Source: Enterovibrio gelatinilyticus (GTDB taxonomy: Bacteria; Pseudomonadota; Gammaproteobacteria; Enterobacterales; Vibrionaceae). Taken from it: DNA of 64,000 nucleotides. The notes under the pieces are model-generated. The model was given only the letters and a program-made list of their open reading frames with translations. It ran no database searches and was not told the DNA's origin. The stretch's first letter is position 1; each line of letters opens with the position of its first letter. Shown here one piece after another: positions 2,779-56,233 of the stretch. The translations under genes and the position numbers were made by a program. The stretch lies in assembly GCF_028683095.1 (NCBI RefSeq), contig NZ_JAJUBC010000028.1:1-64000 (forward strand), read 5' to 3'.

Positions 2779-3133
2779 GTGCTTGTGTCGTTAGACTTGT
2801 CGTCTCAACGGGCGCTACTATAAGTATTTACTCTTTCAGGGTCAATGCTTTGAACAACACGTAACGTTCAATTGCTCGGCATTTAGCCAGCCCCATGCAT
2901 CACTAAACAATCTCAATTAGTAGAGCTCAGAGCCGAACCTTACCTTCAGTTTGAAGAAGGAACCTCAGGTGTGGATAAAATCACGGATACCAGCGGATTG
3001 AAACTCAAATCAATGCTCACAAACCTTCGTAATATCACGTCACAGATTCAACGCGACCCTCAAATTCACAACCCCAATAATAAACCCCAGCATTGCTGCC
3101 GAGGCTCTATGTGTATCGCAACAGAACGTTATA

Positions 3134-4195
3134 TCAAGACAAGGTCTGCTCTAACGCTTTCTTCAACTCCAGCTCTGCCTTTTCTATCACCTGCTGCGCA
3201 TGCTCGCGCTGGGCTCTGCCCTCTTTGACGCGAGACAAGGTGTTATTCAAGGTTTCAATCGTCAGCTGATTCACGGTTTCCAATGAATCCAGATCAAGAA
3301 TGCCACGCTGATAGTTCTCGGCAATTTGCTCTTCCAGCGCCTTGAGCTTCTCGGCATTCTGAACATACTGCTTGTTGGTGTAGTCTTTCACCGCACGCGT
3401 CACCTTCAACGCTTTCTCTTTTTCATAATTGGAAATCGCAATCAAGAACTGGCGTTTCCATAGCGGGAAGGTGTTATGGACGATATCTTGAATATCCTCC
3501 ATCAACATTTTATTGCCTTCCTGCGAGAGGCGAATTTGAGGCGCAGTTTGAATAGCAGCAAGACGCGTCAACTCAAGGTTGTGAACACGCTTTTCAAGAC
3601 GTGCAATCGCTTGAGAAGCATCACGGTACTTTTGCGCATCAAGGGCATCACCACTTTGCTCAGATTGCGCAAGCAAATCAGGCAGGACGTTCTGTGTGAG
3701 ATCGTTCAGTTTGTATTTACCCGCCGCGATGTACTGATCTAACCCCGCAAGCAACTCTAAGTTATGATCATAAAGCGTATCTAGCTGCGTAATATCATGC
3801 GCAAGTTTTACTTCCTGCGCTTCTAAGCTGCCTGATAACTGCTCTAATTGACCTTTCACCGAATCAAAACTCGCCGAGAATTTTTTGAAAGAATCAAAAA
3901 GTTCGCCCACCAACGGAAGCCTCGATAACAGGCTCTTCTTACCAAGGTTGTCGAACTCAGCACTGTCCATGGATGACACCATGGCGTGCAGAATATCTCC
4001 TGCCTCACCGCTGTCACGAACACGGACTTGCTCTAAGACTTCATCAGAGAATGCGGTGATCTTTTCCAACGCACCTTTACCAAAGGTAATCGTGGCAACG
4101 GTATCAAACGCATCAAACTGTTCAGCCAAAGCCACGATTTGAGGTGTCACCTCAACATCCAGCACCTGACTCTGAGGATTCGTCAATTCAGTCAT
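3134..4195 (-). CDS. TelA/YaaN-like toxic-anion-resistance family protein (all-alpha, coiled-coil), last gene of the cassette operon
   Basis: 353 aa, strongly helical and Q/E/L-rich. Its size and composition fit the TelA/KlaA family (PF05816-like). SD GGGAG lies 6 nt upstream of the ATG. The gene starts 15 bp downstream of the PLD gene. Confidence 0.45.
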   Translation of the reverse strand: MTELTNPQSQVLDVEVTPQIVALAEQFDAFDTVATITFGKGALEKITAFSDEVLEQVRVRDSGEAGDILHAMVSSMDSAEFDNLGKKSLLSRLPLVGELFDSFKKFSASFDSVKGQLEQLSGSLEAQEVKLAHDITQLDTLYDHNLELLAGLDQYIAAGKYKLNDLTQNVLPDLLAQSEQSGDALDAQKYRDASQAIARLEKRVHNLELTRLAAIQTAPQIRLSQEGNKMLMEDIQDIVHNTFPLWKRQFLIAISNYEKEKALKVTRAVKDYTNKQYVQNAEKLKALEEQIAENYQRGILDLDSLETVNQLTIETLNNTLSRVKEGRAQREHAQQVIEKAELELKKALEQTLS

Positions 4196-4210
4196 TGGAT
4201 CTCCCTGTCT

Positions 4211-4915
4211 CTATGACGGCTTATGGCAGGGAAACTTCTGCCATAGCGTTTCAAACTGCCTTGAGAACGCAGTGACAAACCTGCGATCATCGGTAAGCGT
4301 AATATCTTCCTGATTATATTTGGAGGCACTGCGCGTCCAGTTAAAACTGCCGTTAATCAGTCTTTGTTCGTCAAATATCGCAAACTTATGGTGCATATGA
4401 TACTGAGTCGTATCAATTTTGACGGCAACGCCTTGTTCGGCGAGGTACTCTACGTCACTCCCTCTGTCGTACATCTTGTCGTTGTCCGTCACGATACGCA
4501 CCTTAATCCCGCGCTTGTGAGCATCAAGAATATGCTTGGTCAAATCGTTGTCTGCAATGGTAAACACGCAGATATCAATGGAATGACGAGCGAGTTTTAG
4601 CTGTTCAATAATACCCGCAGCACACGTTCTCCCAGGCGAGAACCAACTCGTTGCGGTTTCCGCTGAACTCGCGCTCATGATGTTATCTAGCACTTTCACA
4701 ACGCGTTCCAGCCAACGTACCAGAGCTGCAGCATCGCCTTGGTTTACGATTTCTTTCTGCACCAATTTGAAACTCAAATTACGCAGATAAGAACGGTCTT
4801 CATCGCCTAACACCGATTCAGCAAGCTCAGCTTGAAGCTCTCGGCGTTCATTGTCGTCTAAGCGGTAATCTTCAATCGAGGCTTCCAGCCACGCCGACCA
4901 TTTTTGTCGATTCAT
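4211..4915 (-). CDS. Phospholipase D-like (single HKD motif) Nuc-type phosphodiesterase/nuclease-family protein
   Basis: The C-terminal domain carries HMHHKFAIFD...INGSFNWT, the canonical HxK(x4)D(x6)GSxN PLD/Nuc motif, with a single copy. There is a ~100-aa N-terminal helical extension. The ATG directly abuts the upstream stop (TAAATG), with a GGAGG SD inside the upstream gene's last codons. Confidence 0.7.
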   Translation of the reverse strand: MNRQKWSAWLEASIEDYRLDDNERRELQAELAESVLGDEDRSYLRNLSFKLVQKEIVNQGDAAALVRWLERVVKVLDNIMSASSAETATSWFSPGRTCAAGIIEQLKLARHSIDICVFTIADNDLTKHILDAHKRGIKVRIVTDNDKMYDRGSDVEYLAEQGVAVKIDTTQYHMHHKFAIFDEQRLINGSFNWTRSASKYNQEDITLTDDRRFVTAFSRQFETLWQKFPCHKPS

Positions 4916-7900
4916 TTAATTGCCTCCTTGGCTGTTACCACCAAAGCGGGCAACATGTTGGTTCAGCATGGCGAGCTGTTGTACTACTTGTCCTGCACGG
5001 TCTTCGGAATCACCCATCATTTGTTGGCGTTGATATCCGTCAGTGATTTCCTGCCAACGTCCTTGTTGTTCCGGTGTCATATCACCACGCAGTTCAGCAA
5101 GTTTCAGCAGGTTTTCTTCCGTACCCGCCGCCAATGTCTGGGCTTCACCTTGATAGTGATCTTGCAGCATGGTGTTGAGTTCTTCATCGGTCATGACTGA
5201 CGATATTTTCTCGGCAAGTTTGTTCATGTTTCGATAAGAACCCTGCAGCTTAAACGGTGGCTCAACACGATACTGATCCGCCGTAGCGGCGGATTTGATG
5301 TACTGCTGATTCACCTTGAGCACGGTTTGCTGTGCCATCATCATTTTTTGCAGCGTAGAGACAATCTCATTGGATTCGGTCGCCGAATACGAATGGCTCA
5401 TGTCACTCAGTGCAATGCTCTCCCCTTCTGCCATGCGAACAAAGCGGTAAAGGTCATTCAAGTCTCTGGTCGCTAGCGGTGCAAGTACAGAATTCGACGT
5501 CAGAGAGTTCTCAATGAAGCTGAGTTCGAACGCTTGCTTCTGATCAGACAGCATGTCACCAAGGTTGTAGATATCTGCACGGTTCGACAACATATCCGGA
5601 ATTCGGAACGCTTCACCGGTTTCGGTATACGGGTTACCCGCCATCACAACCGCGAACTTCTTGCCACGCATGTCATAGGTTTTGGTTTTGCCTTTCCACG
5701 TACCTTCAATGCGACGTGTTCCATCACACAGTGAAATGAATTTCTGAAGAAATTCAGGGTGGGTGTGCTGAATATCATCAAGATACAAGAGCACGTTGTT
5801 ACCCATTTCAAAGGCGAGGTTAATTTTTTCGATTTCGCGCGCGGCGTTTTGATCAGGCGCATCAGCAGGATCAAGTGAGGTGGCTTGGTGCCCAATAGAC
5901 GGGCCATTGATCTTCATAAACACCAAGCCAAGCTTGTGTGCTACGTATTCGATCAAGGTGGTTTTACCGTAACCCGGCGGCGAAATCAGTAGCAGCATCC
6001 CCATCAAATCGGTGCGTTTCTTATCACCCATGGTGCCCATCTGTTTGGCAAAGTTATCGCCAATCAATGGCAGATAGCTTTCGCTGATGAGTTTGTTTCG
6101 AACAAAGGATGTGAGAGGACGAGGTTTGAATTCCCCGAGTCGGAAATCATCTTTCGCGGTATTAAGGAGCTCTGTGCGTTGATTGAGGTAAGCATCAAAC
6201 TGCGGAACCACCGCAGTTCTGTGATGCTCGTTACGCTGAATAAAATCATCTAACACCAGTGTTAACTGACCTTTTTCAATGCGATCATGCTCACCCAATA
6301 AGCCGTCAATGCTGCAAAGCAGCGAGAAGTCGACACTGCCGATGGAGAAATTAGAACATGATTTCAACACAGTGATGGTCGCGGCTTCCAGAACAAACGC
6401 TTCGCCATACTGCTTACGAGACGTATAAGCAGTCAACCATTGTTTGTGATCAGCAAACGCTGTTTCAATGGCTTCATCAGCTTGATGCCAACCCAGGCTG
6501 CGACGAAACTGAAGGTAGTCTTCACAAAGTGTTAGGGCATCCTGACTGACTTCAATGTTGAGTTCACTCTGACCCAGTAAGTTCACCAGATACTCTGCAG
6601 CCTCATTCGCTTGTTCAGCCTCGAGTAACGCCACCAGCTGAGTTTGCAACAGTTGATAAGCCTCTGACGAATTCAAATGTTCACGCAATAGCTGCGCATT
6701 GATGGCTTGTTGACGATAATGTTCCACTATTTGGCTATCTTGAGCGAGCAACCACAGCAACGCAGAGGAACGGGCTGATTGGCTGAATCGTAGCAATCCC
6801 GCTTGCTGGTAGATAGGTAACACTTTGTCCAAAATACGAATGGCATCGTTGTCGTGAATACCTTTCACATAACCTTCTTTGTAGCGAGGTGCAGCGAATT
6901 TTTGTATGCACTCACTCAACGTGCCTTCTTTTTGATCGGCATAGAGCTTATCGAGACTCAACCCATCGGTATTGAGTTCAGCACCGTGCAGGATCAAGTA
7001 CGCCAAATATTCTGCGCGATACACGTCTTCGCTTTCTGATGCCACATCCAAACGGGACATAGATTGGAGCGTTAGGAAGGTTTCATCTTCAACAGATTGG
7101 TAAAAATCCGTACCCGAAATGTGCGTAGACAATTGACCGTCATGGTCAACAAGACTGAGATCGAGCGGCTGTTGATTCACACTAAAACGGTGCTTACCAA
7201 GACGAAGGACTTTACCTCCCTGCTCGAAGATATCCTGATTGTCACGCAGCGAACGCAAAGACTGATCCTGCAGTGACTTGATCTTCGAATCGACACTGTC
7301 AGCCTTCACACTGTCACCCAACTCTCGAATCGTTGTCGACAGTTGATGCAGTTTCAGCACCATTGCATCTGTTGCGAAGTAGCTGTTAAGCCCCGCCACA
7401 TCATCAAAGCGTTCAACGCGCTTTTCGATGCTCGACATGGTGACGTTAGCAGCTTGCAGAAGGTTCTGAATACGACGCTGTTGAGCCGCAATCAATTGCT
7501 GTTTGTGATTATCGAGCGTTGATTGAATTTCATCTCGTTTGGCATAAATTTCAGCGAGAAACTGGTCAAAGTCAGCAAAACGAGATTCAAGCTTGTCCAA
7601 TTGACCAACCAGTTTCGCTAGCTGATTGTCACAGTCGTCAGGACTTGTTGCCTGCTCCATCGCACTGCTAACAGATTGACTAAGCAACTTAAACTGCGCA
7701 CTGAATTCAGCTTGCGCTTCTTCACTTTGAAGGCCTTTAGACTTACCACGAAGTTTCGCGGAGACAGTATTGAGCATTGACGACACTTCCGTCGTCAAAT
7801 CTAAAATCCGTGTCGCTTGTGTCGGGTCATCCGTTTCAATATCCGTGACTTCTTCCGTCACCAATTGAAGTTCGCTTCTTAGCGTTTCAACCTGATCTTG

Positions 7901-9796
7901 CAGGATCTGAATTTCAGCGGTTTTATCCACCTCTTCAAGCTGCGTTTCAATGGTCTGGATTTGCTTTTTAAAAGGCAGGTAAGCCTTTTCATCCTGCAGA
8001 AGGTTTAGCAACTGCAGATTCAGACTTTCGCGCTGCTCCTGAAGTGTTTCCAGTAAGGCATCAATCCGCTCTTCATCAATGTAATGCTGCTGACGCAACG
8101 CCATCACTGCACCCACCTGCCCTTTCACTTCTGAAAGCAAGGTAAGCAAAGTGTTGGCTTGTTCTTTCGGTGCAAGTTTGATCTTTCCGATCAGGTCAGA
8201 AACGATCCTGTTCTGATCTTCAATACTTTGTGCGGCATGACTTTGAAGCTGCTGAACCTTGGCGAATTCATCGATGATTTTGTCCGCCGTGCCCATCAGT
8301 TCACTAATGGCACCTCCCATGCCTAACGCGTATTCGTGGCCGAGCCAGGTGTAGTGATCAAGCGTTGATTGACATTGCTTGAGAAGCATTTCAAACGCCG
8401 CCTGCGTCACCTCCTCTGTCTGTGCTAATTGGCAAATTGACAAAACAGACGATAAGGCGCGAACCAGTTCAGTATTGCCAAGATTAAATAGCGGGCTGCT
8501 GCCATCACCTTTGGCATTTTCGAGGGCATAGTGTTCTGGCGTTGAAAACGGCGTATCCCAAATACGCAAAGGGTGGATAGTGGAGGCTTCCGCATTTTCA
8601 GACAATTGAAAAACAAGGAAGCGTCCATCGGGATAAAGGCTATAACCATGGCTTTCCATGGGTGCTTCGAACTTTTTCTCAATCAGGTTATAAGTGAAGG
8701 CAATGTAGTAACCGTCCACCGCATTGAAGAAGAAATACAGAATGTCTTCACCGTTGGGTGAAATGACTTTTTGGAAGAATTTGAGATTATTGGCAGGAAA
8801 ATCGAACTGCTTGCTTTCACCATTGGCGAGCACATAACCGTTTGCGTAAAGCACACCATGATCTTCAGGCAAGGATTTTGCGCTTTCACGCAGCGCATCT
8901 GCCCGTGTCACGGATTGATTAAGTGGGTTGTAAAGAAAGTAGCGGCTATGTTTTTCGCGGTTTGGCTTCACCCGCAATGCAATCAGCTCGCCAATAAAGG
9001 CATAGTCGATTTGCGCATCGGCAATACTCTGATGCGCATCTTCCACATCTTCGCGATAAATGCCTTTTCCTTCTGAGGTGTTGTCTTCAACCTTGATGGT
9101 CAAATCCCCACCCACACACTCAACGAATAGCTTATCTCGAATAGACACATGCGGATGTTCACCCAACACATGATCTTCACGCGTCGTAGCTATCCAATCA
9201 AAATCATGCTGTGTCGCGCTTTCGAGCGGTGCATGTCCGTAAGAATCCATGTACTCAGCGGAATTGGCATTCAACTGGAAGCGAAACACCTTACGGTCTT
9301 CGGGTCGGCTGCCAATTTGAAACGCGATATATAGAATACTCTCCTGACGCGAGATTTGAGATAAGCGTGCGTCCCGGTAATAGGTAAACAGCTCGGTAAA
9401 CTCATGCACGAAGCGCGCATCATTCAAGAAGCTGTTTTCTAACGTTAAAGACTCGACACGAAACGTACCTTCATTTTCATGAAGTTGATAAAGGCCAAAC
9501 ACATCATCCAATGATGGCGCTGCCTTCATACCTACCTGCACGTGGTAACCAAACAACAATTGTTGGTTTACCTGCGCCATATCGATGGGAATACATTTGG
9601 CATCAGTTTGTACATTGGCTTTACCAATCAGCGAGAGCTCTTGGCCACCAAATACGTCCTGACGTTGATGATTGAAAGACTGAGAAAGGGTTTTTAGCTG
9701 GTTGCCCTGTTGGGACAGGCGGGATTTGAGAACCTCGTACGCACCGCCTTCACTCACAGCTTGTTGAGTCGTCTCTGACATAATAATACCTATCAA
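4916..9796 (-). CDS. Giant (1626 aa) uncharacterized protein: N-terminal beta-rich domain, ~650-aa coiled-coil and C-terminal MoxR-like AAA+ ATPase
   Basis: The C-terminal region carries Walker A LISPPGYGKTTL (codons ~5950-5985), Walker B NVLLYLDDIQH and a sensor-1-like AVVMAGNPY, the pattern of the MoxR/AAA_5 clade. The central region is heptad-rich (LQ..LE..). The ORF-track start is TTG 9796, with an AGAGG SD 5 nt upstream. An alternative ATG at 9781 (MSETTQQ) has an AGGU SD. Confidence 0.6.
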   Translation of the reverse strand: MIGIIMSETTQQAVSEGGAYEVLKSRLSQQGNQLKTLSQSFNHQRQDVFGGQELSLIGKANVQTDAKCIPIDMAQVNQQLLFGYHVQVGMKAAPSLDDVFGLYQLHENEGTFRVESLTLENSFLNDARFVHEFTELFTYYRDARLSQISRQESILYIAFQIGSRPEDRKVFRFQLNANSAEYMDSYGHAPLESATQHDFDWIATTREDHVLGEHPHVSIRDKLFVECVGGDLTIKVEDNTSEGKGIYREDVEDAHQSIADAQIDYAFIGELIALRVKPNREKHSRYFLYNPLNQSVTRADALRESAKSLPEDHGVLYANGYVLANGESKQFDFPANNLKFFQKVISPNGEDILYFFFNAVDGYYIAFTYNLIEKKFEAPMESHGYSLYPDGRFLVFQLSENAEASTIHPLRIWDTPFSTPEHYALENAKGDGSSPLFNLGNTELVRALSSVLSICQLAQTEEVTQAAFEMLLKQCQSTLDHYTWLGHEYALGMGGAISELMGTADKIIDEFAKVQQLQSHAAQSIEDQNRIVSDLIGKIKLAPKEQANTLLTLLSEVKGQVGAVMALRQQHYIDEERIDALLETLQEQRESLNLQLLNLLQDEKAYLPFKKQIQTIETQLEEVDKTAEIQILQDQVETLRSELQLVTEEVTDIETDDPTQATRILDLTTEVSSMLNTVSAKLRGKSKGLQSEEAQAEFSAQFKLLSQSVSSAMEQATSPDDCDNQLAKLVGQLDKLESRFADFDQFLAEIYAKRDEIQSTLDNHKQQLIAAQQRRIQNLLQAANVTMSSIEKRVERFDDVAGLNSYFATDAMVLKLHQLSTTIRELGDSVKADSVDSKIKSLQDQSLRSLRDNQDIFEQGGKVLRLGKHRFSVNQQPLDLSLVDHDGQLSTHISGTDFYQSVEDETFLTLQSMSRLDVASESEDVYRAEYLAYLILHGAELNTDGLSLDKLYADQKEGTLSECIQKFAAPRYKEGYVKGIHDNDAIRILDKVLPIYQQAGLLRFSQSARSSALLWLLAQDSQIVEHYRQQAINAQLLREHLNSSEAYQLLQTQLVALLEAEQANEAAEYLVNLLGQSELNIEVSQDALTLCEDYLQFRRSLGWHQADEAIETAFADHKQWLTAYTSRKQYGEAFVLEAATITVLKSCSNFSIGSVDFSLLCSIDGLLGEHDRIEKGQLTLVLDDFIQRNEHHRTAVVPQFDAYLNQRTELLNTAKDDFRLGEFKPRPLTSFVRNKLISESYLPLIGDNFAKQMGTMGDKKRTDLMGMLLLISPPGYGKTTLIEYVAHKLGLVFMKINGPSIGHQATSLDPADAPDQNAAREIEKINLAFEMGNNVLLYLDDIQHTHPEFLQKFISLCDGTRRIEGTWKGKTKTYDMRGKKFAVVMAGNPYTETGEAFRIPDMLSNRADIYNLGDMLSDQKQAFELSFIENSLTSNSVLAPLATRDLNDLYRFVRMAEGESIALSDMSHSYSATESNEIVSTLQKMMMAQQTVLKVNQQYIKSAATADQYRVEPPFKLQGSYRNMNKLAEKISSVMTDEELNTMLQDHYQGEAQTLAAGTEENLLKLAELRGDMTPEQQGRWQEITDGYQRQQMMGDSEDRAGQVVQQLAMLNQHVARFGGNSQGGN

Positions 9797-9840
9797 TCCC
9801 GCCTCTTAAGAAGCGGGATTCTGCGAGAAGAAATGAAGGG

Positions 9841-11931
9841 TTATTTATCGTCTGATGACGGTTCCATTGAGCTTTGAATTTTCTTTAACAGCTCAGTTGC
9901 CCCACCTTGCGAGTTCAACAAACTTGCTAACGCAACATTGCTCAAGTCACTGCTTTTCAGTTCAGTGTTCTCCAAAATAGCTTTCAAATCTTCTGGTAGG
10001 CTTCGGTTTCCATCCACATACTCGGACACCAATGGGTTCAGCACTTTCGATTGCTCAAATTTGGCATCAATTGCAGAGGCATCCATGATGGTACGGCGAA
10101 TCTGTTCCATACCTTCACCACCAAACAGACGGATATCAGCTTTTGACAGTGCCTCTGCCAATGCTTTCGCGTTTTCACTGACCACGGTTTTCTGTGCATC
10201 AATGCGCGCGATTTCCAGATCTTTATCTTGTTGCAGTTGCATCACCCACTTATCGTGGTCGCGCGTATGCTCATCGTATTGTTGCGCCGCTTCAAAGCGT
10301 GCAGTTTGTGCTTCTGCTTCTGCCAAGCCCTTAGCACGAAGTGCCTGCGCTTCTGCTTCACCTGCACTTTGCATGGCAAACGCTTCTGCCTCGCCAGTTT
10401 CTTTAATGGCCTGAGCGCGCTCACGATCCACTTCGACTTCAGCAAGACCCGTTGCACTGATCATTTCTTTCTCAGCATGTGCCATACGCTCTTTGGCTGC
10501 GGCTTCACGTTCTTTCGCCACATAGCCTGCTTCAGCACGTTTGGTCGTGACAATATGCTCCGCTTCCGCTTCGCGTGTCTTCACGGCTAGGTCATTTTCC
10601 GCATCACGGGTTTTCACTTTAAGTTCGGCTTCATTTTCAATCAGCAAACGCTCTGCACGTTCTTTTGCTGCATCTTTCTCAGCGCGAGCACCAACCAATA
10701 ATTCAAGCTGCGCGGCTTCTGCAGCCGCTTCTGCTTCAATCATCTTCACGCGTTTCTCACGGCCTACACGCTCATTAACACGAAGGTTTTCAGTCTCTTC
10801 CTCTTCACGCGCAATTTTACGTTCAATCTCAACACGCTGAGAGCGTGTTTCGGAAACAGATTTAAGCGCTTCTTCAACCGTTGTCTCTTTCTGCATTTCA
10901 CGCTCAGCCACTTCCGTCGCTGTACGTACTTTTTCTGTTTCAACAGAACGGGTCAGCTCTTCTTGCTGAATTGCCACTTGGCGCTGATTGGCGATACGGG
11001 TCATTTCAACTTCCATTTCCACGCTTTCACGCTTCTTGGACACTTCTTCTTCCGTTTCTAATTTCGCCAACTCAGTGACGCGCAAATACTCCTGTCGCTT
11101 CTCAGCCGCTAGCGCTTCTTCTTGCGCGGTAATAATGTCGACTTCACGTTGAGTACGCGCAATACTCTCTTTTTCTTGCTTATCTAACTGCAGACGGTTT
11201 GCTTCCGCTTCAACGTTTTTCTTCTTCATCGTTGTGCGTTCATCCTGACGGATAGCATTCGTTTCTGTGTTCTTTTGAGCAGTAATTGCTGAGATTTTAC
11301 GAATACCTTCAACATCAAGAATGTTGTCCGGGCTATGAGCATCCAGCGCGGTTTGGTCAACTTTATCGATAACCACATCGTAGATTTTGAAACCATCCAT
11401 TTCGCTGCCGATAACTTCAACAACCGCATCACGGAACGCTCGGCGATTGGTCAGCAATTCTTCAAACTCAAATTGCTTTACCGCCGTTTTCAATGCTTCT
11501 GAAAATTTAGGTTGGAAGTGTTCTTTTAAACGTTCAAGATTCGAGGCTTCATGTGCTGTGAAGAGTTTGGCTACACGAACAATGTCTTCTTCTTCATGAT
11601 TTACACCGATATAAAAATCAACTCTTAAGTCCGCTCGGATGTTGTCTCGGCAGTGAAGACCTTCATATTCTTCGCCTTCCTGATCTTTACGACCACTGCG
11701 TACAACAGAGATTTTCTTACGTGTAATGTCCATATATTCGAATCGGTTAACAATCGGCCATACGAATGTGCCGGTTAACGAAGCGCGTGTACGGTGAAGT
11801 CCGTTCACAATAAGTGCGTCACCCTCACCACGTACTTTTTTATAACGAGAGGTGAGAAATACCATGACGAGAAGGAAAACGCCGATGCCAATGCCGATAA
11901 AAATGATGCTAGGGGAAATTTCCATTTCCAA
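9841..11931 (-). CDS. yqiK: Flotillin-like SPFH/band-7 domain protein (YqiK family) with long EA-rich coiled-coil
   Basis: An N-terminal TM helix is followed by an SPFH domain (…ALIVNGLHRTRASLTGTFVWPIVNRFEYMDI…), then ~400 aa of Glu/Ala/Lys/Arg-rich coiled-coil. The gene is paired with a YqiJ-like gene immediately upstream, as in the E. coli yqiJK operon. Confidence 0.8.
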   Translation of the reverse strand: MEMEISPSIIFIGIGIGVFLLVMVFLTSRYKKVRGEGDALIVNGLHRTRASLTGTFVWPIVNRFEYMDITRKKISVVRSGRKDQEGEEYEGLHCRDNIRADLRVDFYIGVNHEEEDIVRVAKLFTAHEASNLERLKEHFQPKFSEALKTAVKQFEFEELLTNRRAFRDAVVEVIGSEMDGFKIYDVVIDKVDQTALDAHSPDNILDVEGIRKISAITAQKNTETNAIRQDERTTMKKKNVEAEANRLQLDKQEKESIARTQREVDIITAQEEALAAEKRQEYLRVTELAKLETEEEVSKKRESVEMEVEMTRIANQRQVAIQQEELTRSVETEKVRTATEVAEREMQKETTVEEALKSVSETRSQRVEIERKIAREEEETENLRVNERVGREKRVKMIEAEAAAEAAQLELLVGARAEKDAAKERAERLLIENEAELKVKTRDAENDLAVKTREAEAEHIVTTKRAEAGYVAKEREAAAKERMAHAEKEMISATGLAEVEVDRERAQAIKETGEAEAFAMQSAGEAEAQALRAKGLAEAEAQTARFEAAQQYDEHTRDHDKWVMQLQQDKDLEIARIDAQKTVVSENAKALAEALSKADIRLFGGEGMEQIRRTIMDASAIDAKFEQSKVLNPLVSEYVDGNRSLPEDLKAILENTELKSSDLSNVALASLLNSQGGATELLKKIQSSMEPSSDDK

Positions 11932-11949
11932 CTCCTGATTTATATTCCG

Positions 11950-12564
11950 TTATGCTTTCGCTACCACGTAGCGATTTGAAGTGTCATCTTTGAAGACGAT
12001 GACCACTTCTTCTCCGTATTGAATCGTGCTTTCGTCTTGCAGCATGACATCAAGTAAAAACTCATTACCTTGATGCAATACCACGACTTCCCCTCTTTCT
12101 TTGTTAACGACGTTGCTGTGAACCCGCGCTTTCAGGCCAATATAGTCAACCTGAGCAAACGCCTTTTTACGGTCGAACAATGGCGCGAGTGGCTTTAACA
12201 ACAACGCAGATATTGCAAGGGAGAGGTAAGCAACGATTGGGATTGATGCGAGATCAATCAAAAGATTTGTAACGCCTGAAAACAGGCTGATATTCATTTG
12301 TGCGGAGTAAAACGACATGACGGTTGCGATAAAACACGATACACACAACGCAACCATAAGAGGGACTTTTGATAACACTTGAGGCAAAAGCAGACCTGCT
12401 CCCGGAATGTTATCAAGGTCAAAAATGTCGAGATCAGCCGTGAAGCCTTCCACCACATTAAAAACCAGATCTATGAGCATAATGAGGAAAAACACTACAA
12501 ACGGAATAAAAAATACGTTTGTAGGAAATGCCATCAGCATGCCCAGAAACTCACCAACTGCCAT
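11950..12564 (-). CDS. yqiJ: YqiJ/NfeD-like inner-membrane protein (membrane anchor plus C-terminal OB-fold), flotillin partner
   Basis: Hydrophobic N-terminal two-thirds. The C-terminus …VVIVFKDDTSNRYVVAKA resembles the E. coli YqiJ tail (…RFIVAKA). It ends 18 bp upstream of the flotillin gene. Confidence 0.7.
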   Translation of the reverse strand: MAVGEFLGMLMAFPTNVFFIPFVVFFLIMLIDLVFNVVEGFTADLDIFDLDNIPGAGLLLPQVLSKVPLMVALCVSCFIATVMSFYSAQMNISLFSGVTNLLIDLASIPIVAYLSLAISALLLKPLAPLFDRKKAFAQVDYIGLKARVHSNVVNKERGEVVVLHQGNEFLLDVMLQDESTIQYGEEVVIVFKDDTSNRYVVAKA

Positions 12565-12868
12565 ATAACGTTACTCTAAACAAAGTTTTATGTTTTATCG
12601 TTGTTTTGATGTCTAAGCTTTTTACAAAGCTGTCCAAGACTAACTGAGAATGGTCAGTTTTAAACCTATATAACAGGCTTATATGATTCGGTTCAAAAAA
12701 ATAGGCCGCCAAATTCTTATACAAGACACAAACTCGACCTTACAGCCAATGATTAAGAAATGAGACAATTACTGAGTGCTCTTCATTGCGATGACGATAA
12801 ATTTTTCGTTGAAATGAGCCTCATCGCAGAAACGAAAAAGCCCCAGCATTGCTGCTAGGGCTTCGAAT

Positions 12869-12912
12869 ATCGCGGTGAGGGAGACATGACTCGTCATTCT
12901 GCTACTCTCACC
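12869..12912 (-). pseudogene. Probable decayed tRNA-Ser remnant (internally deleted)
   Basis: atcgcggtgagggagacatgactcg… resembles the 3' end of the intact tRNA-Ser (tggcggtgagtgagagattcgaactctcg), and …ctctcacc resembles its 5' end. It is preceded by the same 'cagaaacgaaaaa + GC-hairpin' spacer architecture as the intact copies. Confidence 0.3.
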
Positions 12913-12946: not shown

Positions 12947-12977
12947 GAGAAAACCCAAGCATTTCTGCTTGGGTTTT
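12947..12977 (-). terminator. Rho-independent terminator downstream of the second tRNA-Ser
   Basis: cccaagc-atttct-gcttggg hairpin, followed by a T-run on the minus strand (gaaaa on plus). Confidence 0.6.
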
Positions 12978-12982
12978 GAATG

Positions 12983-13070
12983 TGGCGGTGAGTGAGAGAT
13001 TCGAACTCTCGATACGTTGCCGTATACACACTTTCCAGGCGTGCTCCTTCAGCCACTCGGACAACTCACC
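12983..13070 (-). tRNA. serX: tRNA-Ser (anticodon GGA), second copy, 88/88 identical to the copy at 2691-2778
   Basis: Identical 88-nt sequence. The upstream block (gacttatcgtctcaacgg…aactatag) is conserved with the copy-1 upstream block (gacttgtcgtctcaacgg…tactataag), likely the promoter region. Confidence 0.93.
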
Positions 13071-14184: not shown

Positions 14185-15570
14185 GTGACCACACAAGCAT
14201 TCTCTACCCTGCCGTTGAAAGCCGAATTGCTTTCTACACTTACTGATATTGGCTACACGGAAATGACGCCTATCCAAGCACAAAGCCTTCCAGCCATTAT
14301 CGATGGGAAAGATGTCATTGGTCAGGGTAAAACAGGCTCAGGTAAAACTGCGGCATTTGGCCTTGGCTTGCTCAATCGCCTAAATGTAAAACGCTTCCGC
14401 GTTCAATCACTGGTTTTGTGCCCAACACGCGAGCTGGCAGATCAAGTTGCTATTGAGCTTCGTAAATTAGCCCGTGGTATCCACAACATCAAAATACTGA
14501 CGCTGTGTGGCGGTGTTCCAATGGGACCACAGATTGGCTCGCTTGAGCATGGTGCTCACATTATTGTTGGCACACCAGGCCGTATTCTTGATCACCTTGA
14601 TAAAGGCCGTCTGTCACTAGAAGAAGTGAACACACTGGTTCTTGATGAAGCTGACAGAATGCTTGAGATGGGTTTCCAACCTGCTTTGGATGCTATTTTC
14701 CAAGACATGCCAGCAAACCGCCAAACACTGCTATTCAGTGCGACCTTCCCAACGCAGATCCAAAGCATCAGCCGTCAAATCATGACCGCTCCAGTGATGG
14801 TTAAAGTTGAGTCAAACCACGATAGCAGCAGCATTTCTCAGCACTTTTATGAGTGCAACAGTAACAAAGATAAAATGCGTGCCCTACAGCTATTGCTGCT
14901 CAAACACCAACCAGAAAGCGCCGTGGTATTTTGTAATACCAAACGTGACGTTAAAGATGTAGCTGCAGTGCTCGATAACGAAGGTTTCTCTGTAGTTGCA
15001 CTGCATGGTGATCTTGAGCAACGCGACCGTGACCAAATGTTACTCAAGTTTGCTAACAAAAGTGTCACCGTTATGGTTGCTACCGACGTCGCGGCACGCG
15101 GTCTAGATATTGAAGCGCTAGATGCGGTAATCAACTACGACATGGCATTTGATACCGAAGTACACATTCACCGTATCGGTCGTACAGGTCGAGCTGGAAG
15201 CGAAGGTGCAGCACATACCTTCTTTGGCAAAGAAGATGGTTATAAGATTGCATTACTGCAAGACTACCTAAACCATGACATTAAAGGCGAAGCGCTTCCA
15301 GACGATTCAGCCATGAACAACATGCCTCGCACTCCTTTGATGACAACATTGCACATCGAAGCAGGTAAGAAAAACAAAGTTCGCCCAGGCGATATTCTCG
15401 GTGCATTGACCGGTGATGATGGAATCCAGGGCAGCGAAGTGGGTAAGATTAAAGTCACCGATTATCGTTCGTATGTTGCAGTAAAACGAAATGTTGCAAA
15501 ACACGCTTTGAATAAGCTGTCTTCAGGCAAAATCAAAGGCCGTACTTACCGCGTTTGGCAATTACGCTAA
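14185..15570 (+). CDS. dbpA: ATP-dependent RNA helicase DbpA (DEAD-box, 23S rRNA-specific)
   Basis: DEAD-box motifs: Q-motif, GKTGSGKTAAF, DEAD, SAT and HRIGRTGRAG. A C-terminal DbpA RNA-binding domain is present. The N-terminus aligns with E. coli DbpA. GTG start. Confidence 0.9.
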   Translation: MTTQAFSTLPLKAELLSTLTDIGYTEMTPIQAQSLPAIIDGKDVIGQGKTGSGKTAAFGLGLLNRLNVKRFRVQSLVLCPTRELADQVAIELRKLARGIHNIKILTLCGGVPMGPQIGSLEHGAHIIVGTPGRILDHLDKGRLSLEEVNTLVLDEADRMLEMGFQPALDAIFQDMPANRQTLLFSATFPTQIQSISRQIMTAPVMVKVESNHDSSSISQHFYECNSNKDKMRALQLLLLKHQPESAVVFCNTKRDVKDVAAVLDNEGFSVVALHGDLEQRDRDQMLLKFANKSVTVMVATDVAARGLDIEALDAVINYDMAFDTEVHIHRIGRTGRAGSEGAAHTFFGKEDGYKIALLQDYLNHDIKGEALPDDSAMNNMPRTPLMTTLHIEAGKKNKVRPGDILGALTGDDGIQGSEVGKIKVTDYRSYVAVKRNVAKHALNKLSSGKIKGRTYRVWQLR

Positions 15571-15605
15571 TCGAACAAGCTATATAGTGCGCCATATCGC
15601 ACTGT

Positions 15606-15652
15606 AAAAAATGCCCTCATCCAGAAATGGCATGAGGGCATTTTCGTTTTTT
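15606..15652. terminator. Bidirectional rho-independent terminator between convergent dbpA and the DUF336 gene
   Basis: atgccctcat-ccagaaatggc-atgagggcat 10-bp stem, followed by ttttcgtttttt. It is A-rich on the other side. Confidence 0.75.
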
Positions 15653-15668
15653 GTCCAAGCTGACTTTC

Positions 15669-16166
15669 TTATTTGCTGACTTTCTTAATTGCTGCTTCTG
15701 CACATGCTACGTCTAAATGACCGCCTGGGGCACCTCCCACACCAATAGCACCAACAACCGCACCTTTCACTGTCAATGGCAAACCACCCGCAAGTAGCAA
15801 TAGGTTGTCATCCATGTTCTGCAGAGGTTGTAAGATGGGCTTTTCGTCAATGAGCTTCATCAGTTTACCTGTTGGCTGTTTCATACTCGCCGCAGTGAAT
15901 GCTTTCTGACGAGAGCTCTCAAGCGTATGTGAACCTGCTTTATCGTCACGTAACTGCGCTAGCACACGCCCAGCCGGGTCTACAACGGTCGCTGTCACTG
16001 CGTAACCCTCTTTTTGACACTGTTCAACAGCTTTCACAGCAAGCGCTAATGCTGAATCTGTTGATAAAGAAGGGACACTAACAGTGTCGATTTTTGCTTG
16101 TGCAGAAAAAGTGGTAAAAAGCGCCGTACCAAGAACGAACGTACACATTTGGGTTGCTGATTTCAT
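15669..16166 (-). CDS. Secreted DUF336 (GlcG/HbpS-like, haem-binding/haem-degrading) protein
   Basis: Signal peptide, then the conserved C-terminal block LAGGLPL…GAIGVGGAPGGHLDVACAEAAI typical of DUF336/HbpS. A GGAG SD is present. Confidence 0.7.
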   Translation of the reverse strand: MKSATQMCTFVLGTALFTTFSAQAKIDTVSVPSLSTDSALALAVKAVEQCQKEGYAVTATVVDPAGRVLAQLRDDKAGSHTLESSRQKAFTAASMKQPTGKLMKLIDEKPILQPLQNMDDNLLLLAGGLPLTVKGAVVGAIGVGGAPGGHLDVACAEAAIKKVSK

Positions 16167-54727: not shown

Positions 54728-56233
54728 ATGACTTCACGCGCTCCGTTTTACATGCTTATCAGCCTGCTCATTGTTGTTGGTATGGGCATGAGTATGTATC
54801 GTCATGACGTCTACGGTGTGCCGTGGACTGCTGGTCAAAAACACCAAGTGTGGGAAGTTGAGGCCCGCGTTGAATTTGAAGCCAAAGGCGACCCCGTTAA
54901 AGTCTCTTTAGCAACGCCGGACACACAGTCTGGCTTTACGCTTATTAACGAAAACACCAGCTCTCCAGGTTACGGGTTTGCACTGGTTAACACCGAAGAT
55001 GGCCGCCGCGCTGAGTGGACGAAACGCGTAGCCAGTGGCCAACAGATCTTGTACTTCAAAAACCAAATGTTGGTGGATGAAAACGCGAAATTCCCCAATG
55101 AGCCGCCGTTAAGCAACGTTGCCCCTATCGCCCTTGATGGCCCCGTGAAAACGGCGGCAGATGCAATTTTGGCGCAAGCTATCCAACGTTCGGCGGATAA
55201 CAGCACGCTGACCCGCGAAATCATCAAACAGTTCAATGATAACGAAAGCCAAAATGCCGCTCTGCTTACCAAAGAGATGAGCAAGGCTGACGCTATTGTC
55301 GCCATCCTTTCACTCGACAATGTGCATGCTCGCGTCGTTGGCGCACTGCAATTGGAAGATGGACGCCGTCGCCAGAGCATTATCCCTATGGTCGAAACAT
55401 GGGACAACGAACACTGGCAGTTGTTTAACCTCGAAACTGGCGCAAAAGATACATCCCAAGATCTGCTGCTGTGGAATGAGAAAGGCACACCAATGTTAGA
55501 AGTCACTGGAGGTACTAACAGCCAAGTTAGTTTCTCTATCATTTCGCAAGACATTAGCCCCAAACAAGCCACCGACGAGAAGATTCAAGCAGAAAGCCTT
55601 TTAAACTTTTCGATCCATAGCCTGCCTATCGAAGAGCAAGCCATGTTCAAAACCATCATGCTTGTGCCTATTGGCGCACTGATCGTTGTGCTGCTGCGCG
55701 TGTTGGTTGGCCTTAAAACTTCCGGCACCTTCATGCCTGTTTTGATCGCGGTTGCCTTTGTGCAAACACAGCTTGTGCCCGGCATCGTTGGCTTCCTTTT
55801 GATCGTCGGCACAGGTCTGGTTATTCGCAGTTACTTGTCACGGCTGAACTTACTGTTAGTTGCGAGGATATCTGCCGTTATCATCACGGTTATTTTGATT
55901 ATCTCCGTATTTACCGTTGTCGCATTTAAGATTGGATTGGTTGAAGGCCTAAGCATTACCTTCTTCCCTATGATTATCCTTTCTTGGACCATCGAACGTA
56001 TGTCGATTATCTGGGAAGAAGAAGGCCCGAAAGAAGTCTTGGTGCAAGGCGGTGGCTCTCTACTAACAGCCGTTCTGGTTTACCTTGCCATGACCAATGA
56101 TTTCGTACGCCACATCACCTTCAATTTCATTGGGATTCAACTCGTGATTCTGGCGTTAATACTCATGCTAGGTAACTACACGGGTTATCGACTGAGTGAA
56201 TTGAAGCGCTTTAAGCCTCTCGTGAAGGACTAA
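54728..56233 (+). CDS. Inactive transglutaminase-like domain fused to 7TM helices (UUP1-like membrane protein)
   Basis: N-terminal TM, a ~300-aa periplasmic domain, and seven C-terminal TM helices. It sits between the protease and ATP-grasp genes. Confidence 0.6.
   Translation: MTSRAPFYMLISLLIVVGMGMSMYRHDVYGVPWTAGQKHQVWEVEARVEFEAKGDPVKVSLATPDTQSGFTLINENTSSPGYGFALVNTEDGRRAEWTKRVASGQQILYFKNQMLVDENAKFPNEPPLSNVAPIALDGPVKTAADAILAQAIQRSADNSTLTREIIKQFNDNESQNAALLTKEMSKADAIVAILSLDNVHARVVGALQLEDGRRRQSIIPMVETWDNEHWQLFNLETGAKDTSQDLLLWNEKGTPMLEVTGGTNSQVSFSIISQDISPKQATDEKIQAESLLNFSIHSLPIEEQAMFKTIMLVPIGALIVVLLRVLVGLKTSGTFMPVLIAVAFVQTQLVPGIVGFLLIVGTGLVIRSYLSRLNLLLVARISAVIITVILIISVFTVVAFKIGLVEGLSITFFPMIILSWTIERMSIIWEEEGPKEVLVQGGGSLLTAVLVYLAMTNDFVRHITFNFIGIQLVILALILMLGNYTGYRLSELKRFKPLVKD

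Follow-up and report, generated by a model that had tools for sequence, protein, structure and literature searches.

The first 64,000 nucleotides of contig NZ_JAJUBC010000028.1 of Enterovibrio gelatinilyticus (hereafter, the window) carry on the minus strand, between positions 3134 and 12564, five genes encoding, in order of transcription, a YqiJ-like membrane protein, an SPFH/flotillin protein, a giant AAA+ ATPase, a single-HKD enzyme of the phospholipase D (PLD) superfamily, and a TelA-family protein. We regard this locus as a variant of the Bac-type flotillin/giant-AAA+/PLD operon that lacks PspA and carries TelA, and that probably senses, repairs, or remodels a stressed inner membrane. An earlier, sequence-only reading of the same DNA had presented the five genes as an undescribed module and proposed an ATPase-gated nuclease with an anti-phage role. 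That interpretation holds in part: the module exists and is conserved, but the nuclease/defense mechanism is not favored. Nor is the module undescribed, as four of its genes appear in a neighborhood defined by Ravi et al. 2024 (PMC11237479), and a member has been studied in Pseudomonas aeruginosa under the name bacABCDEF (PMC2587700, PMC10948618). The finding is modest as the discovery of a new type of system because the neighborhood is already in the literature; what is added here is that the locus is tied to bacABCDEF, that BacE and BacF are identified, that the PLD enzyme is recognized as MitoPLD-like, and that TelA recurs as a partner.

The correspondence to the bac operon is best seen at the P. 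aeruginosa locus (L083 among the loci numbered in this study), whose giant homolog (P0147) belongs to a cluster of 3222 sequences and is species-wide and highly conserved within P. aeruginosa. This locus consists of a DUF2170 protein of 206 amino acids (aa), a PspA_IM30 protein (231 aa), a 213-aa protein, a 688-aa protein, a 1746-aa DUF3686/DUF7902/AAA protein, and a 230-aa PLDc_2 protein, followed downstream by yaeQ, recJ, and a 498-aa M4 peptidase taken as lasB. With lasB and recJ, which we take to be PA3724 and PA3725, respectively, as landmarks, we infer that the operon is PA3732-PA3727, i.e., bacABCDEF. In BLAST comparisons, the first four window proteins are 24, 34, 44, and 45% identical to BacC (PA3730), BacD/PaFlo3 (PA3729), BacE (PA3728, over 1636 residues), and BacF (PA3727), the last value including the N-terminal domain of the PLD enzyme. 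The four genes have the same order and orientation at both loci, and the spacing between the BacE and BacF genes is short in both. The two operons differ at their ends: bacABCDEF starts with BacA (YjfI/DUF2170) and BacB (PspA_IM30), which the window lacks, and it has no TelA, which the window operon carries. A sigma-54 site has been proposed upstream of bacA, whereas none was found at the window operon.

The bac cluster was first described as biofilm-associated (Mace 2008, PMC2587700); in 2024 it was enlarged to six genes, bacA-F (PA14_16140-16200), which reverse-transcription PCR placed on one transcript (Wallart 2024, PMC10948618), and mutation of bacA was found to raise the levels of all Bac proteins 6-13-fold. 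Mutation of PA3731 impairs biofilm formation, swarming, rhamnolipid production, and virulence, and the PA3731 protein increases on osmotic shock. PA3728-PA3732 are among 17 genes upregulated in all phage-infected P. aeruginosa samples, where they were reported as 'phage shock proteins'. PA3728 (BacE) is recurrently mutated in cystic fibrosis isolates in three independent studies, and one cystic fibrosis review lists it as an 'ATPase'. The published Bac papers do not state the products of bacE and bacF, and the words 'ATPase' and 'phospholipase' are absent from the BacA paper. The assignment of BacE as the AAA+ giant and of BacF as a MitoPLD-like enzyme was made in this analysis.

Along the same lines, Ravi et al. 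2024 (PMC11237479) described a neighborhood composed of a CesT/Tir(YjfI)-PspA dyad, a YqiJ/YuaF protein with three transmembrane (TM) helices, a Band-7/flotillin protein, and a beta-propeller/coiled-coil/AAA+ protein, followed 'in some Proteobacteria' by an HKD phospholipase D. They assigned it to envelope-stress membrane dynamics in a purely computational study that offered no mechanism. The domain architectures are identical for four of the five window genes, and TelA is the one not shared. The window has a three-TM YqiJ/YuaF-like protein encoded directly upstream of a protein with a TM helix, an SPFH domain, and a coiled coil, a DUF3686/DUF7902 giant directly downstream of the SPFH gene, and an HKD PLD after the ATPase, with no YjfI-PspA dyad at the 5' end. 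Since shortened operons lacking PspA have, according to Ravi et al., the wider distribution, the window locus is a variant rather than a non-member. TelA is unmentioned in that paper or its one text supplement, although Anantharaman, Iyer & Aravind 2012, who covered Ter/TelA contexts, might mention the link. TelA is the sole unreported addition to an otherwise described operon, and the loss of PspA is also new here.

We scanned for relatives of the giant protein with a profile, using one genome per species; at least 586 species were confirmed as having relatives, and 80 loci were examined among the matches listed. The family comprises at least 6471 protein clusters at 90% identity, and the 80 loci span Gamma-, Beta-, and Zetaproteobacteria, Myxococcota, Actinomycetota, Planctomycetota, Acidobacteriota, Eremiobacterota, a Clostridia metagenome-assembled genome, and others, with the giant protein retaining 40-45% identity over ~1600 aa between phyla. 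In 76/80 loci, the giant gene is directly preceded by the SPFH gene on the same strand, and in 70/80 the SPFH gene is in turn preceded by the YqiJ-like gene; the loci without one or the other are mostly cut contigs, with three (L029, L072, and L073) left unexplained. A PLD gene is found downstream of the giant gene in only 14/80 loci and a TelA gene in 12/80, and the Algicola locus (L086) has the trio alone. The core is therefore a three-gene unit made of the YqiJ-like, SPFH, and giant ATPase genes. The strongest partner by association across the 80 loci is PspA: clustering of open reading frames (ORFs) and Pfam identify YjfI (DUF2170) in 28 loci and PspA_IM30 in 27, encoded just upstream and in the same orientation. 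Other recurrent accessory genes encode a rhomboid membrane protease (seven loci) and a small ribbon-helix-helix (RHH)-like protein (eight loci). Hidden Markov models built from those 27-28 loci detected no YjfI or PspA in the 64-kb window, where a tRNA-Ser gene and terminators occupy the upstream side instead.

The complete five-gene order is kept in Vibrio ostreicida (L002), Veronia (L003), V. campbellii (L084), Photobacterium chitinilyticum (L085), and Neptuniibacter (L087), and all five genes occur in a changed order in L045. No flanking gene is common to the window and the V. ostreicida or Veronia locus, and the annotated flanks in V. campbellii, P. chitinilyticum, and Neptuniibacter differ too. 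The five-gene form is a stable, relocating variant of a Vibrionaceae/Oceanospirillaceae clade. One conserved, co-oriented cassette recurs in other genomes, and the neighborhood comparison proposed with the sequence-only reading speaks for the module; what that reading had said would count against it did not appear. Likewise, that reading was right that genes for a giant AAA+ protein, an HKD enzyme, and TelA have been added to a yqiJK-like pair. The family is large and present in many phyla, and it belongs to the core genome of the important pathogen P. aeruginosa, in which it affects biofilm and virulence.

All five minus-strand ORFs are present at the coordinates given earlier, with the giant gene read as 4916-9796, and the 18-, 0-, and 15-bp intergenic gaps are confirmed. 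The YqiJ/YuaF-like (short NfeD-type) protein, the counterpart of BacC, is encoded at 11950-12564 (204 aa) and the YqiK-like SPFH/flotillin protein, the counterpart of BacD, at 9841-11931 (696 aa). The giant ATPase, the counterpart of BacE, had been assigned a TTG start at 9796, giving 1626 aa and a 44-bp gap to the SPFH gene. We consider the ATG at 9781 to be the most likely start, placing the gene at 4916-9781 and giving a predicted protein of 1621 aa, which is 100% identical to a 1621-aa Enterovibrio norvegicus protein at NCBI; Vibrio and Enterovibrio loci share the stretch AUAGGUAUUAnnAUGUCAGA upstream of the giant gene but not the TTG at 9796. With this start, the gap between the SPFH and giant genes becomes 59 nt. 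The PLD enzyme, the counterpart of BacF, follows at 4211-4915 (234 aa), and the TelA-family protein, a soluble, lineage-specific addition, at 3134-4195 (353 aa). The ATPase/PLD junction reads caaGGAGGcaatTAAATG, containing the Shine-Dalgarno sequence and the TAAATG as claimed.

The membrane pair is divergent. Neither the YqiJ-like nor the SPFH protein matches a Pfam, NCBIfam, or PADLOC model, and for the SPFH protein no Pfam SPFH/flotillin model was found at E <= 10 and no NCBIfam model at E <= 0.01; on these searches alone, the 'flotillin' and 'YqiJ/NfeD' labels were unverified. Single-sequence and profile searches of the PDB gave weak matches, to the SPFH protein QmcA for one and, as the top hit, to Bacillus subtilis YuaF for the other. 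Both labels were settled by hhalign alone, in which family profiles built from 20 diverse loci were compared with Escherichia coli K-12 proteins. The SPFH profile aligned with YqiK (probability 99.9%, E = 1.8e-33, 385 columns) across the TM, SPFH, and coiled-coil regions, and the YqiJ-like profile aligned with YqiJ (probability 93.7%, E = 1.9e-7), both in support of the labels. No curated Band 7 model recognizes the SPFH protein, whose membership of the family rests on the profile-profile homology to YqiK. E. coli yqiJ-yqiK and B. subtilis yuaF-floT have homologous first two genes in the same order, but they are two-gene units without ATPase, PLD, or TelA, and the window membrane proteins are too divergent for the Pfam Band_7, Flot, and YqiJ models.

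By hydropathy, the YqiJ-like protein has three predicted TM helices followed by a C-terminal, soluble, beta-rich domain, which the positive-inside rule predicts to be cytoplasmic. The SPFH protein begins with a TM helix (residues 9-27) followed by RYKKVR, so that its bulk, comprising the SPFH domain and a long Glu/Ala-rich coiled coil, is also predicted to be cytoplasmic. By analogy with solved SPFH assemblies, it may form a large, membrane-attached oligomeric cage. In the QmcA assembly identified by the PDB profile match (8z5g), 26 chains are present; the flotillin assembly is reported to be a 44-mer.

The giant protein is built by an N-terminal helix, a beta-propeller (DUF3686), a coiled coil of ~350 aa (DUF7902), a helical middle region, an AAA+ module, and a C-terminal helical domain. 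Pfam matches DUF3686 at residues 34-482 (E = 3e-158) as well as DUF7902, and both AAA_5 and AAA pass the Pfam cut-offs for what is a single AAA+ module. AlphaFold models agree with this layout: the N-terminal part (pLDDT 88) is a helix followed by a beta-propeller, for which the top Foldseek matches are all propellers, and the C-terminal part (pLDDT 84) is a helical region with a single AAA+ module containing a pre-sensor-1 hairpin. The Walker A and Walker B motifs, sensor-1, and a candidate arginine finger show no variation. Structurally, the module groups with MoxR, dynein, and midasin, not with Vps4 or FtsH, making the earlier 'MoxR-like' label fair at the level of the fold. MoxR ATPases such as CbbQ, NorQ, and RavA are, however, ~300-500 aa long and typically have a von Willebrand factor A (VWA) partner, whereas this module lies near the end of a 1621-aa protein, and no VWA domain or partner was seen in the five proteins, the annotated recurrent neighbors, or the P. 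aeruginosa and Vibrionaceae loci. Hydropathy predicts no TM helix in the giant protein, the PLD enzyme, or TelA.

The PLD enzyme was correctly recognized as a single-HKD member of its superfamily: it matches PLDc_2 in Pfam (E = 1e-30) and has an intact HxKx4Dx6GSxN motif, invariant in 15 orthologs. Its supposed affinity to Nuc-type nucleases is not favored. The best solved relative is MitoPLD/Zucchini, the mitochondrial cardiolipin hydrolase PLD6, with a gapless alignment over 136 residues (37.5% identity, E = 4.6e-29); in the same PDB comparison, Nuc (6e-11) and NucT (3e-9) rank behind PLD6. Against the NCBIfam NucT model, the enzyme scores 60 bits with a cut-off of 297. The likeness to MitoPLD/Zucchini comprises the gapless catalytic domain, the intact motif, and a single HKD per chain, and the difference lies outside it, as the mitochondrial enzyme has a membrane anchor, whereas the window enzyme has a soluble N-terminal helical domain of ~90 aa. 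MitoPLD/Zucchini is also documented as a single-strand RNA nuclease.

The N-terminal domain (residues 1-95, positions 4630-4915) is conserved in the orthologs of our alignment A8, with the pattern L..SL.D..L...E+.EL ... RYLRN+AF ... WLE.V.K.LD, and has no Pfam match. It may act as an adaptor tying the enzyme to the ATPase or to the scaffold. The translational coupling of ATPase and PLD, claimed from the TAAATG junction, is confirmed and conserved in three further genomes, with a 0-nt gap in V. campbellii and overlapping genes in P. chitinilyticum and Neptuniibacter.

TelA was rightly named, its PF05816 match covering residues 22-349 with 260.3 bits (curated cut-off 30; E = 3e-77), essentially full length; a PDB search returned no solved homolog. 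Together with TelA, PLDc_2, and AAA+ are clear in Pfam, so that the proposed Pfam check bore out these three labels and gave nothing for the YqiJ-like and SPFH proteins. The 12 TelA-positive loci belong to Vibrionaceae and Xanthomonadales, and TelA also lies 3' of the giant gene in V. campbellii, P. chitinilyticum, and Neptuniibacter. Xanthomonadales TelA is only 25-31% identical to the window protein, compared with ~43% for the ATPases, and was apparently recruited separately, judging from these identities. In the Xanthomonadaceae loci L021, L026, L043, L045, L047, and L067 (~15260-16050), the giant ATPase and TelA genes are separated by an extra gene of ~245 aa, whose product lacks a Pfam match and is a partial TelA-like paralog (hhalign probability 84% over the conserved P-x-W-[KR]-[RQ]-Q region). 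Two further ideas on TelA were rejected. It is not a cryptic PspA/ESCRT-III homolog, as hhalign against the operon-linked PspA profile gave a probability of 0.2%, and it does not replace the YjfI-PspA dyad, which is found in 4/12 TelA-positive and 24/68 TelA-negative loci, showing no exclusion.

In general terms, the membrane-stress reading can be rationalized as follows. The YqiJ-like and SPFH proteins would assemble into a large oligomeric cage or dome that sits on the inner membrane from the cytoplasmic side and encloses a lipid microdomain, as solved SPFH assemblies suggest by analogy. The giant protein would dock at this cage, where its AAA+ module, probably a ring, would use ATP to act on membrane-bound clients in assembly, remodeling, or release. 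Such clients might be held by the beta-propeller and the long coiled-coil stalk, in analogy to FtsH within HflK/C or Vps4 on ESCRT-III/PspA. The MitoPLD-like enzyme, coupled to the ATPase, would modify a phosphodiester in the microdomain, most plausibly cardiolipin or another phospholipid, with nucleic acid as a possible alternative substrate. TelA could be an added membrane-stress effector or client in this lineage, with YjfI-PspA as the encoded partner in most other lineages, and the ratio of scaffold to enzyme is probably kept high by a conserved hairpin that separates the SPFH gene from the ATPase gene. HflK/HflC-FtsH provides a working analogy, in that an SPFH scaffold is genetically tied to an AAA+ ATPase at the inner membrane. 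The differences are considerable: the window giant has no protease domain, its AAA+ module is of the MoxR/dynein type rather than the classic clade, and the bulk of the window SPFH protein is predicted to be cytoplasmic, not periplasmic, leaving homology at the superfamily level only.

The membrane-stress reading draws on the conservation of the trio, its association with PspA and YjfI, the Bac phenotypes, and the stress and phage inducibility of the P. aeruginosa member. It is further supported by the cytoplasmic topology, the homology to YqiK and YqiJ, the closeness of the PLD enzyme to a membrane-anchored mitochondrial cardiolipin hydrolase, and the rhomboid protease among the accessory genes, as well as by the housekeeping flanks and the lack of a PADLOC match for the core. 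In Listeria, telA contributes to resistance to nisin and cell-wall antibiotics, consistent with a role at the envelope. A B. subtilis SPFH protein is reported to link PspA to the membrane.

Several points weigh against this reading. Beyond gene content, the mechanistic steps ascribed to BacC-F-type proteins are deductions from sequence. As neither PspA nor YjfI is encoded in the window, the link to PspA is made by the homology of the other genes only. The RNase activity of Zucchini-type enzymes, along with weak matches of the PLD to DrmC, DpdK, and NucT, makes a nuclease role possible. Since the AAA+ module falls in the MoxR/dynein/midasin group and not with Vps4 or FtsH, the analogies to those remodelers are functional only. 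Deletion of PaFlo3 (BacD) alone in PA14 reduced biofilm by ~20% and gave no stress phenotype. Finally, a mobile accessory role, for example in defense, could likewise explain why the cassette is patchily distributed, occurs on megaplasmids, and has changed location.

A narrower and rather doubtful version sees the locus as a lipid remodeling/repair machine, in which the flotillin cage corrals a cardiolipin-rich patch, the MoxR/dynein-like motor loads or activates the PLD6-like hydrolase, and TelA serves as a dedicated client or effector. If true, it would provide the first mechanistic context for TelA and would suggest a bacterial membrane-stress enzyme as the origin of the lipid-hydrolase function of MitoPLD/Zucchini. 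In either form, the locus yields hypotheses for a poorly understood branch of bacterial membrane stress and for the long-obscure TelA family.

The anti-phage explanation, which we find unlikely, holds that the SPFH/NfeD pair senses infection and that the giant AAA+ protein transduces the signal and releases the coupled PLD nuclease, causing abortive infection with TelA as a helper. It draws on the tight ATPase-PLD coupling and on weak matches of the PLD to the defense PLDs DrmC, MkoC, DpdK, and PbeA in PADLOC and to NucT in NCBIfam, but the PADLOC matches are generic to the HKD domain and sub-threshold. For instance, similarity to DISARM DrmC, Dpd DpdK, and Mokosh MkoC is weak (E 1e-10 to 1e-7), the DrmC model scores 32 bits with a cut-off of 133, and the partner genes of these three systems are absent from the window locus. 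The remaining PADLOC-DB v2 comparison, a check suggested with the earlier proposal, was no more favorable to defense: the YqiJ-like, SPFH, and TelA proteins are unmatched, and the giant protein gives only coiled-coil noise (JetC at 1e-4). The exchangeable 3' accessories (PLD, TelA, rhomboid, and small RHH-like protein) resemble effector swapping, yet the presence of the PLD in just 14/80 loci makes the supposed effector dispensable. A patchy phyletic spread, flanks that differ by genus, and occurrence in 13 of 72,556 plasmid records, all megaplasmids or chromids, would suit a mobile defense system; against this, the giant ATPase is absent from 50,697 phage records, no integrase, transposase, or defense genes were found in the window or among recurrent neighbors, and the species-wide presence in P. 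aeruginosa and the 40-45% identity between phyla are unlike fast-evolving defense genes. Even the phage induction of PA3728-32 is also expected of a PspA-type membrane-stress operon, and PspA is the strongest partner. A tellurite-type function, with TelA as the center of resistance to toxic anions, metals, or oxidants and the flotillin module as its membrane platform, is more improbable still. TelA is named for tellurite resistance and was recruited in two groups, Vibrionaceae/Oceanospirillaceae and Xanthomonadales, with a second paralog in Xanthomonadaceae, but its presence in 12/80 loci cannot define the core function, and TerB, TerC, and TerD were not seen among recurrent neighbors. Knocking out the Shewanella YqiJK homolog SO1376/SO1377 altered iron metabolism and raised sensitivity to H2O2, while P. 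aeruginosa SPFH mutants, including that of PaFlo3, were unchanged in survival of H2O2 or tert-butyl hydroperoxide. The SO1377 paper and a paper on the Arc pathway proved unrelated to the giant-ATPase operon.

There is very little to recommend the view that PLD and TelA simply sit next to an operon of three flotillin/ATPase genes without being functionally linked to it. In its favor, most loci lack them, and a terminator-like hairpin lies inside the cluster, though upstream of the ATPase and not before the PLD. Yet their position, strand, and near-zero spacing are kept in Enterovibrio, Vibrio, Veronia, Photobacterium, and Neptuniibacter while the flanks differ, bacE and bacF are co-transcribed and co-regulated in P. 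aeruginosa, and TelA appears to have been recruited independently in Xanthomonadales. Least credible of all is a DNA-repair ATPase with the PLD as its nuclease. The idea stems from the Pfam description of DUF3686 as 'ATPase involved in DNA repair' and the NCBI protein name 'DNA repair ATPase', to which one may add weak P-loop matches to RuvB and the location of recJ two genes downstream in P. aeruginosa. However, a full-text literature search for 'DUF3686' found no paper, the RuvB matches span only ~45 P-loop residues, Pfam detects no DNA-binding domain, the invariant partners are two integral membrane proteins, and the recJ adjacency is not conserved in other loci. The database name appears to be an unsupported label and, for a family of this size, a misleading one.

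The non-coding elements bear on expression of the operon. A 10-bp, GC-rich stem-loop, AAUCCCGCUUC-UUAA-GAGGCGGGAUU, lies at 9795-9820 on the minus strand, in the SPFH/giant gap and 5' of the ribosome-binding site of the giant gene, with a minimum free energy of -19.8 kcal/mol for 70 nt (z = -2.78). A GC-rich hairpin occurs at the same position in L001, L002, L003, L084, L085, L086, and L087, which together with the window are all eight of the loci compared. The element also supports ATG 9781 over TTG 9796 as the start of the giant gene. Because this hairpin is conserved while the stem sequences differ, and several copies are followed by U-runs, transcription into the giant ATPase gene is probably attenuated here; the element may be an attenuator or an RNA-processing site between the scaffold and enzyme genes. 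The single transcript proposed earlier may thus be attenuated at the SPFH/giant junction instead of being uniformly continuous. Past the TelA stop codon, by 28 nt, a terminator-like hairpin on the minus strand (3079-3106) likely marks the end of the operon; it forms one direct-repeat family with the hairpins at 12835-12862 and 12948-12975. The operon promoter is expected in the upstream non-coding region (12565-12834, minus strand), which has two terminator-like hairpins on its upstream side. A sigma-54 promoter, as at bacA, was considered and dropped, as no consensus site lies in 12565-12834 and window-wide matches are at chance level. Similarly, a sigma-70 scan found no minus-strand site in 12565-12834, and promoter-like sites in the scanned region were not above shuffled expectation.

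The cassette lies between two 98%-identical tRNA-Ser(GGA) genes identified by ARAGORN on the minus strand (2691-2778 and 12983-13070), each with its own TTGACC-17-TATAGT promoter. A decayed tRNA 3' end with a copy of the terminator is found at ~12830-12895, just upstream of the operon. This arrangement suggests that the cassette was inserted into a tandem tRNA-Ser array; no integrase was seen with it. The tRNA-flanked pattern was not seen in 60 other loci, and we rejected a tRNA-flanked island as a general feature of the family. A scan of the whole window at Rfam gathering thresholds returned zero matches despite the two tRNA-Ser genes found by ARAGORN, a discrepancy that calls for caution when 'no Rfam hit' serves as evidence.

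The near flanks encode a DHH/DHHA2-family protein, probably a Mn-dependent pyrophosphatase, UPF0149, a DbpA-type helicase, a two-component system, and nadA. Further window genes include tolB/tolA, cydA, aspS, an MMPL transporter, and GGDEF/EAL proteins, so that the flanks are of a housekeeping kind. On the plus strand, at 54728-56233, lies a gene for an 'inactive transglutaminase fused to 7 TM helices' protein (PF14400 and PF14402), which is unrelated to the operon; after it come other ORFs and genes for GGDEF and EAL proteins.

Two other members of the family are unusual in organization. In Veronia nyctiphanis (L003; 7828-9941 and 11266-14868), the SPFH coding sequence is broken into two ORFs that overlap, and the giant ORF is cut short (a 1184-aa NCBI protein, P0054); this cassette appears to be decaying, or to contain assembly errors. 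The Pseudomonas fluorescens SBW25 megaplasmid pQBR103 (L082; NC_009444.1, 84440-105341) carries a fused, ten-gene version in the order YjfI, PspA, rhomboid, DUF2491, DUF350, DUF1190, glutathionylspermidine synthase, YqiJ-like, SPFH, and giant ATPase, which unites the polyamine and flotillin contexts of PspA that Ravi et al. treated separately.

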